64,000 nucleotides of DNA from NCBI GenBank assembly GCA_021817785.1, contig JAKAFY010000002.1, forward strand, positions 11,750-75,749. Reading direction: 5' to 3'. The translations under genes were made by a program, and so were the position numbers. The notes under the pieces were generated by a model that was given only the letters and a program-made list of their open reading frames with translations, searched no databases and was not told the origin of the DNA. Shown piece by piece: positions 641-49,849 of the stretch; the first letter of the stretch is position 1; each line of letters opens with the position of its first letter. Source of the stretch: a bacterium. Lineage in GTDB: Bacteria; Patescibacteriota; Microgenomatia; UBA10105; UBA927.

Positions 641-2668
641 ATGAAATTAGAACTACAACAATTATTTCAGGATGTTTTGAACGAAGTCGGAGTTACTGAC
701 ATCGTTCCCGACGTTGTCATGTCTGCCGACAGCAAACACGGGGAATACACCACCAACGTTGCCATGAGACTGGCAAAACCATTGAAAAAAAGTCCGATGG
801 ATATCGCACTACAGGTTAAAACGAGCATCGAGAAGCGAGTATCGGGTGTCAGGCACAAGATTCCAGATCAGAAGAATAGCAAACCAGATCAAAAGAATGC
901 AGGCAATGTAACGGAAAAAAATACATTACAGGATAAAGATAATACGAAGTTGTCGACCAGCGATATCTTGTCGTCCATTGACCGCATAGAAATAGCTCCT
1001 CCCGGCTTTATCAACGTGTTTTTAAAGGATGTCGCCCTAAGCAGTCAGGTGAGGGAAGTGCTAAAAGATGGGGAGCGCTATGGAAAGAGCCAAAGCGGAA
1101 AAGGGAAGCACCTTATGGTGGAATACACCGACCCCAATCCGTTTAAGGAATTGCATATCGGACACTTATATAGCAATGCCGTAGGGGAGAGTTTGGCCCG
1201 TCTGTACGCTGCAATAGGATGGGATGTTTCCCGCGTGGACTACTTTGGAGATGTCGGTATGCATGTGGCCAAGTCCATATGGGGACTGCGGAAAAAAATG
1301 GCAGAAGATCATGTCACCCTGGCTGTTTTGGAAAGTAAGCCGCTTCCGGAACGGGTGCAATATTTGGGCCAGGCCTACGCAAAAGGCGCTACCATCTACG
1401 AAGAAAAGACGCCGGAGGCGGAGAAAGCCAAAGAAGAGATGAAAGACATAAACTACATGGTGTATCTGGCAGCCCAGGAGTATATGGAAAAGGCGCTCAA
1501 ATGGACGCCGCAGGTGGATTACCGCCAGTATGTGCAGGTCGATGATACGCTCTATCAGGAAGTGAAGGAACTATACGAAAAAGGCCGCACCTGGAGTATG
1601 GACTATTTTGAAACGATTTTCCGCCGGTTGGGCACGCATTTTGATGCGTATTATCCTGAATCCATCGTCGGAGAATATGGCGCAAAGCTTGTCCGGGAGC
1701 ATATAGGCAAGGTATTTGAAGAAAGCGACGGAGCCGTGGTCTTTCGCGGAGAATCCTCGAAAGCCGGACTGCATACCCGGGTATTTTTGAATTCTCTGGG
1801 ATTGCCGACCTATGAGGCCAAAGAATTGGGGTTGAACTGGAAAAAGAGCCAGGATTATGCCCTGGATAAGTCGTTTATCGTGACCGGCAACGAAATCAAC
1901 GAATACTTTAAAGTCCTGTTTGCTGCCATGGAGCAGGTTATTCCGGAAATCGGGGCAAAAACGAAACATATAGGCCATGGCATGGTGAGAAATGCGGACG
2001 GGAGCAAAATGAGCAGCCGTACCGGAAACGTCCTGACCGGCGTGGGTATGCTGGAAGAGGTAAAGAAATCAATCTATGAGATACTAGATAAAAGTGAATC
2101 ATCCTCCTTCGTTAAAACGTCTGAGGACAAGGAGGAGATAGCGGAGAAAGGTGCAATAGCAGCTGTGAAATATAGTCTGCTTCGTGTGGCATTACCCTCG
2201 AATGTTTCGTTTAGTATCGCGACATCTATTTCTTTTGACGGCGACTCGGGGCCGTATCTTTTGTACACCTATGCCCGGTGTAAGAGTGTGCTGCGGAAGG
2301 CCTCTTCTGCATCAGCATTGGTTCCCAGTTCCTTAGGTGACTTAGGTAACCTAGGTGACGTACGTTTTAATGAAGATGAGCGTGCATTGGCGCGCCTCAT
2401 CCACTTCTTTCCGGAAATCGTAGCTGCTGCGGCACATGATTTGGCGCCAAACGTCATCTGTACCTATTTATTTGATCTCGCACAGTCCTTTAATACGTTT
2501 TATCAGAAACATCAAATTATCGAGCAGCGAGAACCGAGCAGTGAGAACCGAGGCTCGATGCTCGATACTCGATACTCGAATTTTCGTCTCGTCCTCACTG
2601 CCGCCACTGCCCAGGTGTTGCAAAATGGCCTTAATCTTCTGGGCATCTCCACAGTTGAACGGATGTAA
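641..2668 (+). CDS. argS: arginine--tRNA ligase (class I) carrying in-frame insertions
   Basis: HIGH-type motif PNPFKELHIGH, a class-I catalytic core, and a C-terminal anticodon-binding domain ending ...LLGISTVERM. At 675 aa it is longer than typical ArgRS because of insertions (see findings). Confidence 0.9.
   Translation: MKLELQQLFQDVLNEVGVTDIVPDVVMSADSKHGEYTTNVAMRLAKPLKKSPMDIALQVKTSIEKRVSGVRHKIPDQKNSKPDQKNAGNVTEKNTLQDKDNTKLSTSDILSSIDRIEIAPPGFINVFLKDVALSSQVREVLKDGERYGKSQSGKGKHLMVEYTDPNPFKELHIGHLYSNAVGESLARLYAAIGWDVSRVDYFGDVGMHVAKSIWGLRKKMAEDHVTLAVLESKPLPERVQYLGQAYAKGATIYEEKTPEAEKAKEEMKDINYMVYLAAQEYMEKALKWTPQVDYRQYVQVDDTLYQEVKELYEKGRTWSMDYFETIFRRLGTHFDAYYPESIVGEYGAKLVREHIGKVFEESDGAVVFRGESSKAGLHTRVFLNSLGLPTYEAKELGLNWKKSQDYALDKSFIVTGNEINEYFKVLFAAMEQVIPEIGAKTKHIGHGMVRNADGSKMSSRTGNVLTGVGMLEEVKKSIYEILDKSESSSFVKTSEDKEEIAEKGAIAAVKYSLLRVALPSNVSFSIATSISFDGDSGPYLLYTYARCKSVLRKASSASALVPSSLGDLGNLGDVRFNEDERALARLIHFFPEIVAAAAHDLAPNVICTYLFDLAQSFNTFYQKHQIIEQREPSSENRGSMLDTRYSNFRLVLTAATAQVLQNGLNLLGISTVERM
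2519..2590. repeat. family-A in-frame repetitive element in argS (CGAGCAGCGAG ... CTCGATACTCGATACTCG)
   Basis: Homologous at the nucleotide level to lepA 13510-13580. It encodes EQREPSSENRGSMLDTRYS at a position where ArgRS orthologs are about 15 aa shorter. Confidence 0.6.
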
Positions 2669-2716
2669 CACGTGAATCTTCATATTTTGGCATAGTTTGA
2701 TATCATTAGTATCCTT

Positions 2717-12627: not shown

Positions 12628-14646
12628 ATGTCAGATCAATCCCACATTCGAAATTTCGCCATCATTGCCCACATAGATCATGGCAAGAGCACGCTTGCTG
12701 ATCGGTTGTTGGAGCTTACCCATACTGTCGCTCAGCGGGACATGCATGCCCAGCTTCTGGATAGCAACCCCATCGAGCAGGAGAGGGGGATTACCATCAA
12801 ATTAGCGCCGGTGCGGATGATGTATCAAGCGAAAAACGAAAATGGAAAAACGAAAAATGAACATACGCAACACATTTCAGATTTTCCATCGTACATTTTA
12901 AATTTAATTGATACTCCGGGACACGTAGACTTTGGGTATGAAGTCAGTAGGTCGTTGGCGGCCTGTGAAGGCGCGCTCCTCGTCGTCGATGCGACGCAGG
13001 GCGTACAGGCCCAGACATTGGCCAACCTGCATCAAGCCCGTCAGCACAATCTCACCATTATTCCTTTGATAAACAAAGTCGATATGCCGCATGCTCGGAT
13101 TGCAGAAACACGAGAGGAGCTTAGAAGCTTAGGTTTTAACGATGAAGAAATGATCGAAATATCGGCAAAAACCGGGGTAAACGTGGAGAAAGTGCTGGAA
13201 GCGGTTATCGAACGTATACCACCACCCCATGGAGATCCGGATGCGCCGCTTCGGGCGCTTATATTTTCGTCCCAATACGATACGCATAAAGGCGTCGTTA
13301 TATTTGTACGGGTAGTAGATGGTAGTATTCACTTTGATCCACTATTGAGACTGAGATTTATGGCATCAAAGAGTGACAACGCTCCTATAGAAGTTGGGTA
13401 CTTTTCCCCGCAGTGGGTGGCGACTACCGATTTGCATTGCGGCGAGGTAGGGTATATCGCCACGGGACTCAAAGATGTGAAGTTGGCAAAGGTCGGGGAT
13501 ACCGTAACGATACTCGAGCAACGAGCAGCGAGTAGAGAGAAAAGGGTGTCATCGACTCTCGATACTCGTTCCTCGATGCCCGTCCCGCTTACCGGGTACA
13601 AAGAGCCCAAGTCCATGGTGTTTTTGGGGCTGTTCCCGCTGGCTGCGGATGAATATCAGGAAACGCGGGAAGCGGTAGAAAAGCTTCAGCTATCAGACAG
13701 TGCGTTTTCGTTCCGGCCCATATCGTCGCTTGCTTTGGGCAACGGCTTCCACTGCGGATTTTTAGGACTCCTGCATGCAGAAGTGGCCCAGGAACGGATT
13801 TTGCGTGAATTTGGCCTCACCATGATCGCGACCAGTCCGAGTGTGGAATATCACCTAACCCTTCATCCCGGAGTTGATTATCATAAACTTGGTTTTACAC
13901 AATCATCTGTCATTGCGAGTGAAACGAAGCAATCTCATGATGATAACGAGATCGCCACGTCCCGCGATGGCGGGACTCGCGATGACATGGGGGTGACGGT
14001 TGCCATCCAGTCTGCGGAAGAGTATCCGGATCCTTCACAGGTGGCGTCCGTCAAGGAGCCGATTATGAGCGTGGATATTTACAGCCCGAAAAAGTATACC
14101 GGCGCCATCATGCAACTTTCCCAGGAAAAACGGGGGGTGTATATGGACTTGACGTACGTTGGAGACCAAGCGCACTTTGTATACCTTATTCCGCTTTCCG
14201 AAATGATCGTCGACTTCTTTGATCGGCTAAAGAGCGTGACCGAAGGGTACGCCAGTTTGGACTACGAATTTTTTGATTGGCAAGAGGTAGAAGTCGTTAA
14301 GGTCGATATATTGGTCAATAAAGAACAGGTCGATGCACTGTCATTTCTCATCACCCGCGATGCGGCACTACAGCGCAGTCGTGAGCTGGTGGAACGCTTG
14401 GCAGGAGTGATTCCTCGCCAGCAGTTTGAAATCCCCATACAGGCCACCATAGGCGGCCAGGTGATCGCACGATCGGACGTGAAAGCGTTTCGCAAAGACG
14501 TCACGCGCAAGCTCTATGGCGGTGACCGCACCCGGAAAGACAAACTCTTGGAAGCACAAAAGAAAGGCAAGGCGAAGATGAAAATGATCGGGAGAGTGGA
14601 GATACCACAGTCAGCGTTCTTTCAGGTGCTGAAGCGGACGAATTGA
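12628..14646 (+). CDS. lepA: elongation factor 4 (LepA) translational GTPase with three in-frame insertions
   Basis: IRNFAIIAHIDHGKSTLADRLLE G1 motif, DTPGHVDF, NKVD, and LepA-specific C-terminal domains. At 672 aa it is about 70 aa longer than typical LepA. Confidence 0.92.
   Translation: MSDQSHIRNFAIIAHIDHGKSTLADRLLELTHTVAQRDMHAQLLDSNPIEQERGITIKLAPVRMMYQAKNENGKTKNEHTQHISDFPSYILNLIDTPGHVDFGYEVSRSLAACEGALLVVDATQGVQAQTLANLHQARQHNLTIIPLINKVDMPHARIAETREELRSLGFNDEEMIEISAKTGVNVEKVLEAVIERIPPPHGDPDAPLRALIFSSQYDTHKGVVIFVRVVDGSIHFDPLLRLRFMASKSDNAPIEVGYFSPQWVATTDLHCGEVGYIATGLKDVKLAKVGDTVTILEQRAASREKRVSSTLDTRSSMPVPLTGYKEPKSMVFLGLFPLAADEYQETREAVEKLQLSDSAFSFRPISSLALGNGFHCGFLGLLHAEVAQERILREFGLTMIATSPSVEYHLTLHPGVDYHKLGFTQSSVIASETKQSHDDNEIATSRDGGTRDDMGVTVAIQSAEEYPDPSQVASVKEPIMSVDIYSPKKYTGAIMQLSQEKRGVYMDLTYVGDQAHFVYLIPLSEMIVDFFDRLKSVTEGYASLDYEFFDWQEVEVVKVDILVNKEQVDALSFLITRDAALQRSRELVERLAGVIPRQQFEIPIQATIGGQVIARSDVKAFRKDVTRKLYGGDRTRKDKLLEAQKKGKAKMKMIGRVEIPQSAFFQVLKRTN
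13510..13580. repeat. family-A in-frame repetitive element in lepA
   Basis: CTCGAGCAACGAGCAGCGAG...CTCTCGATACTCG encodes EQRAASREKRVSSTLDTRSS, about 17 aa longer than LepA orthologs at this loop. Confidence 0.6.
13909..13986. repeat. family-B palindromic element, 78-bp in-frame copy in lepA
   Basis: GTCATTGCGAG...CGAAGCAATCT...GTCCCGCgatgGCGGGAC...CGCGATGAC, with terminal inverted repeats. It shares the 5' 13-mer and the CGAAGCAATCT box with 32608-32699, and is exactly 26 codons long. Confidence 0.65.
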
Positions 14647-34858: not shown

Positions 34859-35537
34859 TCTCTATCACTCCTGATTAGTATTTTTCCAAAATCCCTCAAA
34901 TACCCCCTGCCGGAGATATTTTTAGGGTTACTCGTTTGGCCGCAGATGTGCTCGCGGCGTTTTTCTGCTTTTTGTTGTGGTTTAATTTTTCTTTTTTCTT
35001 TATTTCTTCTTTTCCTCTTTCTTTTCTGTTTTTCGAATGGATTGTTTTTTCTTTGTTAAAAAAGAATTTTTCTTTCCCCCACGTATAAATTCTTGATTTT
35101 TTCTTAATATTCCCCTAGTTTTAATACCCCCTATTCAGAAGAGAATATGGTTCTCTCCAAGTAGGGGGTAGTAACCCAAGGGTGCCACAACAATCAGGAG
35201 TTCATGCTACACGACCCCTTATTATTAAATGTATTTCCAACTCTCTCATGTTAATGTGCTCCTCGCGTTGCTCGGAGTGGGTAAACCCACTCACAGCCGC
35301 AATTGGCCGCTTGAACTTCGCAAAGAACCCACGGTCCATCAGCCAGAGGCTGACAAGAGCGTGTTTCCGGTGATTGGTATCACCAGAAGCAAGGGGGAAT
35401 ACAGATTCCACCTTGCTTCCGGCGACTTGAATTATCAATCAATAGTATTAAGTGCTAATAGCATATATACAGGTTGCTACGGCAATCTATCTATATATTC
35501 TATTGACACTCAAGTAGGCGAGATGTAGAGTAAAGTA

Positions 35538-48562: not shown

Positions 48563-49849
48563 ATGCATACACAACCATTTATAAAAAAAGTATTACCAAA
48601 CGGCGTGCGGCTATTGCTCGTGCCTGTTCCCAGCGTCAATAGTGTGGCCTCTGCCGTCCTCGTCGGTGTGGGGAGCCGGTATGAAACACCGGACATAAAC
48701 GGCATTTCCCATTTCCTCGAGCATATGGTGTTTAAAGGAACGGCAAAATATCCCACGATGGACGACGTGACGGTGATCGAACGCGTCGGTGGGCTTCAGA
48801 ATGCCTATACCGATATTGATGTCACTAACTACCACAACAAAGTATTGGCGGAAGATTGGGAGTTGGGGCTCGAGATCAATAAAGAATTGGCCCTCCACCC
48901 CAGGCTGGAAGAACAGTGGGTGGACAAGGAACGCGATGTCATCATCGAAGAAATGAAGCGCTATGACGATGAGCCGGCCGCCAAAGTGGAAGAAACGTTC
49001 CACGGCATGTTGTATCGCGGCACCAAACTCGGGATGCGGATCATCGGCGAGGAAGCGAGCTTGAGACGAGTAGCGAGTAGCGAGCTTCGGTCGTATCACG
49101 ACGTCTGGTATATGCCGGAAAAAACGGTGGTGATAGCAGCAGGCAATATAGACGGGAAGCGGGTGTCGAGTATCGAGGGTCGGGTATCCGAATGGTTTTC
49201 CGATATGAAAGGCAGGGCACAGGGGGATATAGAGATGGTAAAAGAAACGCAGACCGCTCCAAAATTGGAAGTGGTGACGAAACCCGACGCACAGCAGGCA
49301 CATCTGGTCATAGGACTTCGGACCTTTGCCCGTGGCAGCGAGGACCGGTTTGCCTGGGGGGTATTTAACCTGTTGATGGGTGTGGGATTTACCTCACGTC
49401 TGTTTAAAGAAGTACGCGAAAAGCGGGGGCTCTGCTATCATGTGAGAAGCGAAAGCTCCGCATTTGCGGACGTCGGGTACTGGGACATTTACGCCGGGGT
49501 GGCCACTGCCAAAGTGGAGGAAGCGACACAGGCGATACTCAGTGAATTATCCAAAGCCGCAGACAAAGGGGTGACGGAAGACGAAGTCACTGTCGCCAAA
49601 AAGCGGCTAAAGACGGTGCTGGCATTCCGGAGTGAAGATCCGGAGTTTTTTACCGAATGGTACGGCCGGCAGGAAGTGTACAATCAGCCGTTGATGACGC
49701 TTGAAGAGTATATCAAAAAGATAGATAACGTATCGAAAGAAGACATACATCGGTTAGTGAGACACTATTTCAAAACCGAAACGCTCAACATGGCACTCGT
49801 CTGGAGCAAAGGGCGGGAAGAAAAATTACTTCAATTGCTGCATATATAA
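48563..49849 (+). CDS. M16 family zinc peptidase (insulinase-like)
   Basis: Inverted zinc motif HFLEHMVFKGT (HxxEH), with the downstream Glu region EEMKRYDDEPAAKVEE. Confidence 0.85.
   Translation: MHTQPFIKKVLPNGVRLLLVPVPSVNSVASAVLVGVGSRYETPDINGISHFLEHMVFKGTAKYPTMDDVTVIERVGGLQNAYTDIDVTNYHNKVLAEDWELGLEINKELALHPRLEEQWVDKERDVIIEEMKRYDDEPAAKVEETFHGMLYRGTKLGMRIIGEEASLRRVASSELRSYHDVWYMPEKTVVIAAGNIDGKRVSSIEGRVSEWFSDMKGRAQGDIEMVKETQTAPKLEVVTKPDAQQAHLVIGLRTFARGSEDRFAWGVFNLLMGVGFTSRLFKEVREKRGLCYHVRSESSAFADVGYWDIYAGVATAKVEEATQAILSELSKAADKGVTEDEVTVAKKRLKTVLAFRSEDPEFFTEWYGRQEVYNQPLMTLEEYIKKIDNVSKEDIHRLVRHYFKTETLNMALVWSKGREEKLLQLLHI

Follow-up and report, generated by a model that had tools for sequence, protein, structure and literature searches.

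A palindromic repeat of a widely dispersed family, apparently related to the CGTC-type repeats, lies in frame in lepA of a Patescibacteria genome

How does a 78-bp palindrome come to lie within the reading frame of a gene for an elongation factor? This question is raised by lepA, the gene of elongation factor 4 (EF4), in a 64,000-nucleotide stretch of a Patescibacteriota genome (Microgenomatia, assembly GCA_021817785.1, contig JAKAFY010000002.1, positions 11,750 to 75,749), which we refer to as the window. A first-pass annotation made from the sequence had described a palindromic element with terminal inverted repeats inside this gene, and this observation is real. We consider it likely that the segment is a hairpin repeat of the kind represented by repetitive extragenic palindromes (REPs) and Rickettsia palindromic elements (RPEs), in the form of a cross-paired head-to-head (HH) dimer variant, and that LepA carries it as an in-frame passenger. 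Coordinates are collected in Table 1.

The palindrome and its site in LepA

The host protein is identified as LepA/EF4 by all three Pfam domains (GTP_EFTU at residues 6-199, EFG_C, which is domain V, at 476-560 and LepA_C at 563-669) and by full-length similarity to solved EF4/LepA chains (phmmer, E = 2e-179). The distance from the start of the gene to the element is 1281 nucleotides (13909-12628), that is 427 codons, and the element therefore begins at codon 428. It occupies exactly 26 codons, is in frame and contains no stop. Sequence, arms and length were thus as first described. Of the peptide originally given, the 26 codons stood, while the two residues appended to it (MG) turned out to be the next two host codons.

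Three stretches of the window protein are additional to T. thermophilus EF4. Between window residues 417 and 455 the alignment is interrupted and leaves 418-454 unaligned, in agreement with the earlier statement that E. coli LepA has nothing equivalent to the insert. An AlphaFold2 model of the window protein was built on 45 homologues (mean predicted local distance difference test score, pLDDT, 66). Its segments with pLDDT <50 include exactly the three lineage-specific stretches (72-84, 299-315 and 432-453), and the insert is placed between strands 428-430 and 457-461, upstream of domain V. LepA lacks a domain IV. The site is therefore the connection between domains III and V, after domain III and before EFG_C, and not a domain IV-V linker as had been proposed; in the model it is the tip of the beta-hairpin joining the two domains, and the loop is predicted to be disordered.

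The copy in lepA (copy 1) reads GTCATTGCGAG-TGAAA-CGAAGCAATCT-...-GTCCCGCgatgGCGGGAC-T-CGCGATGAC. Its ends, GTCATTGCGAG at 13909-13919 and CTCGCGATGAC at 13976-13986, form ten Watson-Crick pairs and one T.G pair over 11 positions, and the G variant of the right arm also occurs in L127 and L129 (L numbers denote DNA loci, P numbers LepA homologues). The perfect internal hairpin of the first description is present as well. The window contains two copies only. The second one (copy 2) pairs at 11/11 end positions and has, as had been noticed, TGTCATTGCGAGT, CGAAGCAATCT and the right end CTCGCAATGAC in common with copy 1; both copies read T-GTC...GAC-A/C at their borders. Folded as RNA, an 86-nt stretch with copy 1 reached -38.8 kcal/mol, and copy 2 formed a four-way junction at -44.1 kcal/mol. 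Both had z = -5.3, and 0/200 shuffles were as good in either case.

Could the palindrome be due to chance, be native LepA sequence or be an artefact of assembly? The 11-mer ends match four times in the window compared to 1.24 expected matches, a count only marginally above expectation that was reached by 4/100 shuffles and is weak evidence alone. Against chance stand the fold scores, the second copy with its three boxes in the same order and the same architecture in at least 120 genomes; against an artefact stands the presence of the element in lepA of independent assemblies from different samples. We regard explanations of this kind as extremely improbable.

The repeat family and its relatives

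We scanned one genome per species using the pattern GTCATTGCGAG-N45-75-CTCGCAATGAC, which yielded at least 120 loci. Among species-representative genomes, at least 120 from about eight phyla hold elements with these ends. The repeat is thus a dispersed family, as suspected at first, but neither lineage-specific nor private to this genome, and it ranks among the most widely distributed short repeats in this sampling. Going by record titles, hosts among the matches listed include Bradyrhizobium, Sphingomonas, Novosphingobium, Rickettsiales and Micavibrio, Alpha-, Gamma- and Deltaproteobacteria, the Bacteroidota Mucilaginibacter, Pedobacter, Flavobacterium and Bacteroidales, as well as Chloroflexi, Microcoleus (Cyanobacteria), Planctomycetota, Moduliflexus and Patescibacteria including Berkelbacteria. 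Most copies are intergenic, and members of the family lie in frame in UvrA (L049) and GuaA (L043). The family was unannotated in the records inspected, among them megaplasmids of Novosphingobium, Methylosinus and Methylocystis; a single Novosphingobium replicon carries it in at least 40 places. It gives rise to spurious or chimeric peptides that recur (VIASEAKQS, SLRGAKRRSN, RHCERSEAI, ...ARND, ...LAMT). Literature searches with the terminal, box and encoded-peptide sequences returned primer coincidences at most.

The family follows the pattern GTCATTGCGAG...CGAAGCAATC...GATTGC...CTCGCAATGAC. Although the search fixed the ends only, inner boxes of the form (C)GAAGCAAT...ATTGC(TTCG) were present in 107/131 copies. 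Each element has four half-arms, all with ATTGC/GCAAT, a variable spacer (median 26 nt) and optional local hairpins, and the tags lie outside in all copies. The two outer arms pair with one another (ATTGCGAG/CTCGCAAT), as do the two inner arms (GAAGCAAT/ATTGCTTC), each over 8 bp of complementarity. Single units are therefore unable to fold alone, a unit by itself forming a 5-bp ATTGC/GCAAT stem at most. The half-arms of one side are 9-17 nt apart (modes 9 and 15), and in the lepA copy the distance is 5 nt, with mismatches. In many copies the gaps between outer and inner arms hold small local hairpins of unrelated sequence, often with GAAG, TTCG or GCAA loops. The distal pairs of the inner stem covary (C-G/T-A 60/22; A-T/C-G/T-A 54/30/6), as does the tail (consensus GCAAT-C(C/T)(A/C)G; CTC and CTG in the window copies), which is paired with the other half. 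Flanking bases were counted in 136 copies, namely the 131 from the genome scan together with the lepA-locus and window copies. The base at -1, before GTC, was C in 89/136 (65%) and T in 40/136 (29%), the base at +1, after GAC, was G in 96/136 and A in 36/136, and the palindrome usually reaches one or two bases outward.

The first-pass annotation had also regarded frame preservation as a property of the element. The lengths of the 131 copies split 46/47/38 modulo three, and this even spread means that frame preservation is a survivorship filter in coding DNA. Both ends can be read through without a stop in two of the three frames (VIAS...RND and SLRG/HCE...LAMT), and the third stops in ...SQ-TGA.

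Two loci of the scan were unusual. In Sphingobacterium sp. (L071, 2729-2849) four left ends (GTCATTGCGAG/A/C) stand in tandem about 17 nt apart and are followed by one complete element; this array could have been left behind by elements that repeatedly inserted or excised at a single site. In L049 the signature of another GTCAT-type palindrome, CHSEQSEESL...SFTAFRMT, stands in the open frame directly upstream of the UvrA start, so that this uvrA is both flanked and interrupted by repeats, which belong to two different families.

Which of the described repeats does the family resemble? Prokaryotic REPs have been split into GTAG- and CGTC-tagged superfamilies (Di Nocera, De Gregorio and Rocco, 2013; PMC3733652). 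According to the text of that survey, CGTC REPs carry a terminal CGTC tag, often TGTC (CCTC is allowed), stems of 8-9 bp that begin with AT (first two pairs A-T and T-A), loops of 4-5 nt and a short CCA-like 3' tail. They occur in several phyla, mostly as HH dimers with the tags outside and spacers of 20-100 bp that may contain stem-loops of their own. Dimers within genes, frequently repair genes such as uvrA, code for 20-30 residues, and no dedicated transposase is reported in the text. CGTC-1 comprises dRS3 of Neisseria and RPE-6 of Rickettsia (VIPAKAGI), and CGTC-4 corresponds to RPE-4 (VIPWLDHGI) (PMC3733652). Of the described repeats the present family comes closest to these, in its outer (C/T)GTC tags, ATT-starting arms and HH dimer layout, in an inner GCAAT-CCA(G) stretch that may correspond to the CCA-like tail, in its variable spacer and in its dispersed multi-copy occurrence without a linked transposase, mostly intergenic with in-frame copies (e.g. 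UvrA). It differs from them because its units cannot fold alone, having neither the 8-9 bp unit stem nor the 4-5 nt loop, and because its tails are base-paired and covarying. Moreover, VIASEAKQ...ARND is missing from the survey's table of intragenic REPs (the comparison concerns this table), and the hosts also include Patescibacteria, Bacteroidota and Chloroflexi. Owing to the unit-stem difference and the missing coding signature we call the repeat a CGTC-related variant, which appears to stand beside the four described CGTC families rather than within them and which may be catalogued in the survey under a different designation.

Since 2000, palindromic repeats have been on record as in-frame insertions in core genes of Rickettsia and of a few other bacteria, and the basic phenomenon is therefore not new. 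New details are this version of the repeat and its recurrence at the same lepA loop. RPEs, reportedly described by Ogata and colleagues in 2000 (work cited in PMC3733652 and PMC1779305), are in-frame palindromes in housekeeping genes that add a surface peptide and leave the protein intact, and several may occur in one gene. RPE-1 is longer (100-150 bp), and RPEs have been described as Rickettsia-specific. The lepA element is alike in being an in-frame palindromic repeat in a housekeeping gene that took up several insertions. It differs in its signature, VIASE(A/T)KQ as opposed to VIPAKAGI (RPE-6) and VIPWLDHGI (RPE-4), where the comparison is one of peptides only, and in that its family spans many phyla.

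Presence and absence at the same codon of lepA

We aligned 120 LepA homologues from Patescibacteria and built a neighbour-joining tree. Presence of the element at this codon is patchy. The nearest relatives (P0002, P0003 and P0005, 78-82% identity) lack it and have a short loop of 23 residues. Seven homologues of 70-76% identity (P0004, P0008, P0009, P0010, P0011, P0013 and P0036) show VIAS/VIAT...KQ...R(N/D)D at the same place, and palindromic DNA at the same codon is found in eight lineages of that identity range. In L003, for instance, the lepA DNA is clearly the same element (GTCATTGCGAGCGAAGCGAAGCAA...GATTGCCGCG...CTCGCAATGAC). With the same palindromic DNA in sister LepAs and many copies elsewhere, a coincidental likeness of the two window copies, named in the first-pass annotation as the outcome that would speak against a mobile element, is not what we found. 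On the tree, element-bearing LepAs are scattered single tips among uniform short-loop relatives. Within one clade of 80-85% nucleotide identity, P0009, P0016 and P0029 have, respectively, the element, a different 39-nt palindrome and nothing. The palindrome in P0016 (L130) reads GCCCGCC...GGCGGGC with CAG on both sides, and the nucleotide identity of this gene to an element-bearing one is 85%.

This distribution could go back to one ancient insertion in the ancestor of the Patescibacteria LepA clade, with vertical descent and many losses, instead of repeated insertion. The LepA copies share two variants that the family at large shows rarely, TCGCCACG in place of GATTGCCACG (7/8 copies) and CGCGAYGAC in place of CGCAATGAC (5/8 copies), as well as alignable spacers, and such shared variants would argue for common descent or a local subfamily. 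In addition, the alleles of intermediate length in P0019 and P0023 ('..KQDN..') look like internally deleted copies. However, to account for the scattered tips, at least eight deletions would have had to arrive independently at the same length of 23 residues, and two subclades, each of which has a filled sister, have in common a short allele, IVSEAN(N/D)Q, in which serine is encoded by TCA. Repeated colonisation certainly happens, as this loop and a loop in the G domain (see below) hold many unrelated palindromes, and the clade of P0009, P0016 and P0029 occurs in three states. We consider a single ancient insertion possible, though doubtful.

The ends and stems might also be a functional nucleic-acid structure under selection in lepA, for example an mRNA structure with an effect on decay or translation, or a DNA or RNA site to which a host factor binds. 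The codons GTC ATT GCG are identical in all eight element-bearing lineages, whereas none of the invariant columns elsewhere in lepA uses one codon in all eight (Val 0/31, Ile 0/21, Ala 0/29), and the Arg codon is CGC in 6/6 lineages. The hairpin preceding the right arm is kept with different sequences in 7/8 LepA lineages, and the distal inner stem shows compensatory changes among LepA copies (CTC/GAG vs CCC/GGG vs CCG/CGG). Many REPs are argued to act as RNA elements in the text of the 2013 survey (PMC3733652). Yet the nearest relatives do without the element, and in L002, L125 and L126 decay of the right arm has cost the copy its outer stem. Members of the family are mostly intergenic and also occur in genes unrelated to lepA, and Rfam returned only two tRNAs at gathering score in the window and nothing meaningful at E<=10 around either copy. 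Recent insertion or gene conversion would explain the end conservation equally well. A functional structure thus seems improbable to us. In a tally from the aligned sequences, the right arm had about 16 changes and the left arm two over 88 positions each, about an eightfold difference; behind the conserved ends may be repeated insertion in recent times, gene conversion, or selection that acts at the nucleotide level on the left end.

Most likely, the element is a tolerated passenger in a disordered surface loop of LepA. A non-autonomous repeat would have landed in the tip of the III-V beta-hairpin, or would have been copied into it by recombination. Its survival in lepA would be owed to a length that is a multiple of three, to the stop-free frame GTC-ATT-GCG...CGC-RAT-GAC and to a loop that tolerates the residues. 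The insert would most likely be transcribed and translated together with lepA and form a hydrophilic, disordered loop of 26 residues without a role in LepA. The proposed action on essential genes holds in so far as the copy is in frame in lepA; it is better read as survival in permissive surface loops, given that all three LepA inserts coincide with the low-confidence loops, also three, of the AlphaFold2 model.

Several points weigh against this account. Filled loops have 40-43 residues and short ones 23, so that filled alleles are 17 residues longer while the element contributes 23-26; this does not correspond to a simple insertion into the present-day short allele, about six residues of which are replaced in filled alleles. 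The synonymous conservation of the left end and an inner hairpin kept with other sequences are not predicted for a neutral passenger, and the 8-9 bp stem by which the described CGTC REP families are defined cannot form in single units. For active spread, two copies in the window and almost none in about 180 kb flanking related lepA genes are few. Finally, no filled and empty pair of >95% identity was found, which makes any placing of the exact junction, and of the direction of change (gain or loss), provisional. Among the 120 genome loci there was one divergent intergenic pair of filled and empty orthologues (L070/L007), which was uninformative, and a metagenome scan for close LepA relatives, in which the queries were generic GTPase peptides, returned only LepAs of 44-49% identity (L132-L211).

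Alternatively, the lepA loop might be a reusable landing pad at which REP-type palindromes, both of this family and of others, are repeatedly written into the same codon, through end-directed recombination, conversion or site-specific insertion, or the ends might be under nucleotide-level selection. A landing pad would explain the pristine ends at synonymous sites, the replacement of six codons of the short allele and the distribution over single tips. We put this forward tentatively and think it rather unlikely. If either were true, core proteins of Patescibacteria would gain new surface loops from hairpin repeats systematically and not just by rare accident. With a site that is hit repeatedly in a conserved single-copy gene, nature itself would provide a clean assay of the junctions left by insertion and excision.

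Mobility and further palindromes

The 2013 survey found no transposase behind the spread of CGTC-type repeats (PMC3733652). We found no target-site duplication: direct repeats of k>=4 flanked 0-1/131 copies, and shorter ones, with 4/131 at k=2 (control 1.9), were at background level. The flanks lengthen the palindrome rather than forming direct repeats. In about 2 Mb comprising several kb around each of 240 copies, clustering of neighbouring genes revealed no recurrent transposase-like open reading frame (ORF) family, and no parent insertion sequence (IS) with the same ends was present. Clusters near the copies consisted only of ABC ATPases, response regulators and structural genes of gene transfer agents (GTAs) or prophages. 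The lack of both duplication and gene makes mobilisation in trans via single-stranded or hairpin DNA, or recombination between repeat ends, most likely. The route would be the one proposed for REP/REPIN-type elements.

The element had been called MITE/RPE-like, which raises the question whether it might be a classical miniature inverted-repeat transposable element (MITE), that is a deletion derivative of an IS moved by a transposase that recognises the 11-bp terminal inverted repeats. The perfect or near-perfect repeats of this length, the small size, the lack of coding capacity and the dispersal would fit. As described in the text of two reports, bacterial MITEs (Correia/NEMIS, Nezha and QMITE1/2 of Coxiella) are likewise small, have terminal inverted repeats and occasionally overlap genes in frame or at the C-terminus, and QMITE copies donate stop codons, as copy 2 does (PMC10969869, PMC5896051). 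One of them mentions 83-100 nt relatives of small QMITE2 in Bradyrhizobium (PMC5896051), to which the present element might be akin. Unlike MITEs, however, the 131 copies are free of target-site duplications and extend the palindrome into their flanks, neither a transposase-like ORF family nor a parent IS lies in the regions examined beside the 240 copies, and identical ends in about eight phyla are unlike IS-specific MITEs. A classical MITE is therefore very unlikely. The analogy to RPEs holds, the CGTC superfamily including RPE-4 and RPE-6, and the MITE half of the label does not.

In REPIN/RAYT systems the heads are of the GTAG type, and the same REPs flank a single-copy RAYT gene. The present family is like REPINs and BIMEs, which are mobilised by RAYT, in having two inverted palindromic halves that give one long hairpin, in lacking target duplications and in being non-autonomous. 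It is unlike them in having no GTAG-type heads, and neither a Y1 transposase nor a RAYT is encoded in the 64-kb window. As far as this stretch goes, RAYT/Y1 was set aside as the mobiliser; the only hit nearby, in L131, is a TIRYT whose inverted repeats are unrelated. This hit (2041-2688, minus strand) is a 216-aa IS200-like Y1 (HUH) homologue on a Patescibacteria contig, located 3.3 kb upstream of lepA (P0081; Pfam Y1_Tnp, E = 2e-13). Its inverted repeats, GGGTCAGGCCTTGATTTT / AAAATCAAGGTCTGACCCC, fit the TIRYT consensus GGGG[AT][CG]A[CG], and no link was found between this TIRYT (GGGGTCAG... inverted repeats) and the CGTC-type element.

Other candidates were tried and rejected. Genes for small GIY-YIG nucleases (91 aa) lie a few kb from lepA on related Patescibacteria contigs (L126, 422-697; L127, 6367-6642), and such nucleases are not enriched near the 240 copies. 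An intein, an intron or another spliced element was considered and dropped, given 78 nt that lack conserved catalytic or splice motifs and a family that is mostly intergenic. In IMG/VR at least 120 contigs predicted to be viral (L214-L333) contain the element, some with three copies per 10 kb. The genes shared by these contigs look like alphaproteobacterial GTA-type or prophage head-tail clusters, and the contigs are thus no evidence for phage-borne spread. The GenBank phage set gave partial matches only.

Palindromes have also entered other parts of LepA. A hot spot in the G domain (window 12817-12897, codons ~64-90), between KLAPVRM.Y and YILNLID, contains inserts of 15-45 aa (P0007-P0120). 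About half of the 120 homologues have inserts in this loop (window residues ~66-88), which belong to more than ten different palindrome-type peptide families. One of them is the family of the 78-bp element (P0036, HVIASEAKQ...ARNDK; DNA in L129, 6202-6273), and others are CGTC-1-like (CHPGPRAGIH...GQARNDK) or CGTC-2-like (CHPELVSGS...KQVRHDK). The window's own insert there (AKNENGKTKNEHTQHISDFPS) forms a weak hairpin only. In other lineages, inserts of the CGTC-1 type occur in the III-V loop too (P0081, VIPAKAGIH...). It is hence well supported that hairpin repeats have colonised permissive loops of LepA repeatedly, whatever the history of this copy. That two loops of Patescibacteria LepA took in more than ten palindromic families suggests that palindromic repeats contribute materially to lineage-specific insertions in proteins of these reduced genomes.

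Table 1. Coordinates of lepA, the two copies of the element and its parts, and the domain II palindrome in the window. CDS, coding sequence; MFE, minimum free energy.
Feature	Position	Strand	Remarks
lepA (elongation factor 4) CDS, host of the 78-bp element	12628..14646	+	672 aa; from ORF list, phmmer and Pfam
Palindromic element copy 1, 78 bp	13909..13986	+	codons 428-453, VIASETKQSHDDNEIATSRDGGTRDD; residues 432-453 with pLDDT <50
Left outer arm (T)GTCATTGCGAG(T)	13908..13920	+	TGTC tag and ATTGCGAG half-stem; partner 13975-13987 in MFE structure
Inner left box CGAAGCAATCT	13925..13935	+	GAAGCAAT half-stem and tail; partner GAGATCGCC at 13948-13956
Local hairpin GTCCCGC-GATG-GCGGGAC	13959..13976	+	variable stem-loop preceding right arm
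Right outer arm (A)CTCGCGATGAC(A)	13975..13987	+	one A-to-G change vs family consensus CTCGCAATGAC
Palindromic element copy 2, 92 bp	32608..32699	unassigned (.)	four-way-junction version, perfect 11-nt ends
Second in-frame lepA palindrome (domain II)	13510-13587, codons ~295-320	unassigned	EQRAASREKRVSSTLDTRSSMP, tandem CGAGNAG heptads

The domain II palindrome of lepA folds at -28.8 kcal/mol (z = -3.55) and is separate from the 78-bp element. Its relatives lie at 822-839, 2521-2564 and 49067-49084, and the 11-mer CGAGCAGCGAG (<=1 mismatch) occurs ten times in the window compared to 0.77 expected. These CGAGNAG palindromes are probably the first family alluded to when the 78-bp element was described as a second one.

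A minus-strand ORF (32609..33340) extends into copy 2, from which its final ~30 codons and its TGA stop are derived. The encoded protein of 243 aa has an N-terminal membrane anchor and no Pfam match, and its C-terminus, ...SLRGASFRATRQSISSHRLLRPRQRRDSQ, comes from copy 2. ORFs overlap in several frames at 32700-33000, which makes the true end of this gene doubtful. A further stretch of about 330 bp at 35100-35430 is free of ORFs >=100 aa and of Rfam matches. It contains strong inverted repeats at 35113-35182 and 35380-35425 and may represent a structured RNA or a repeat cluster.

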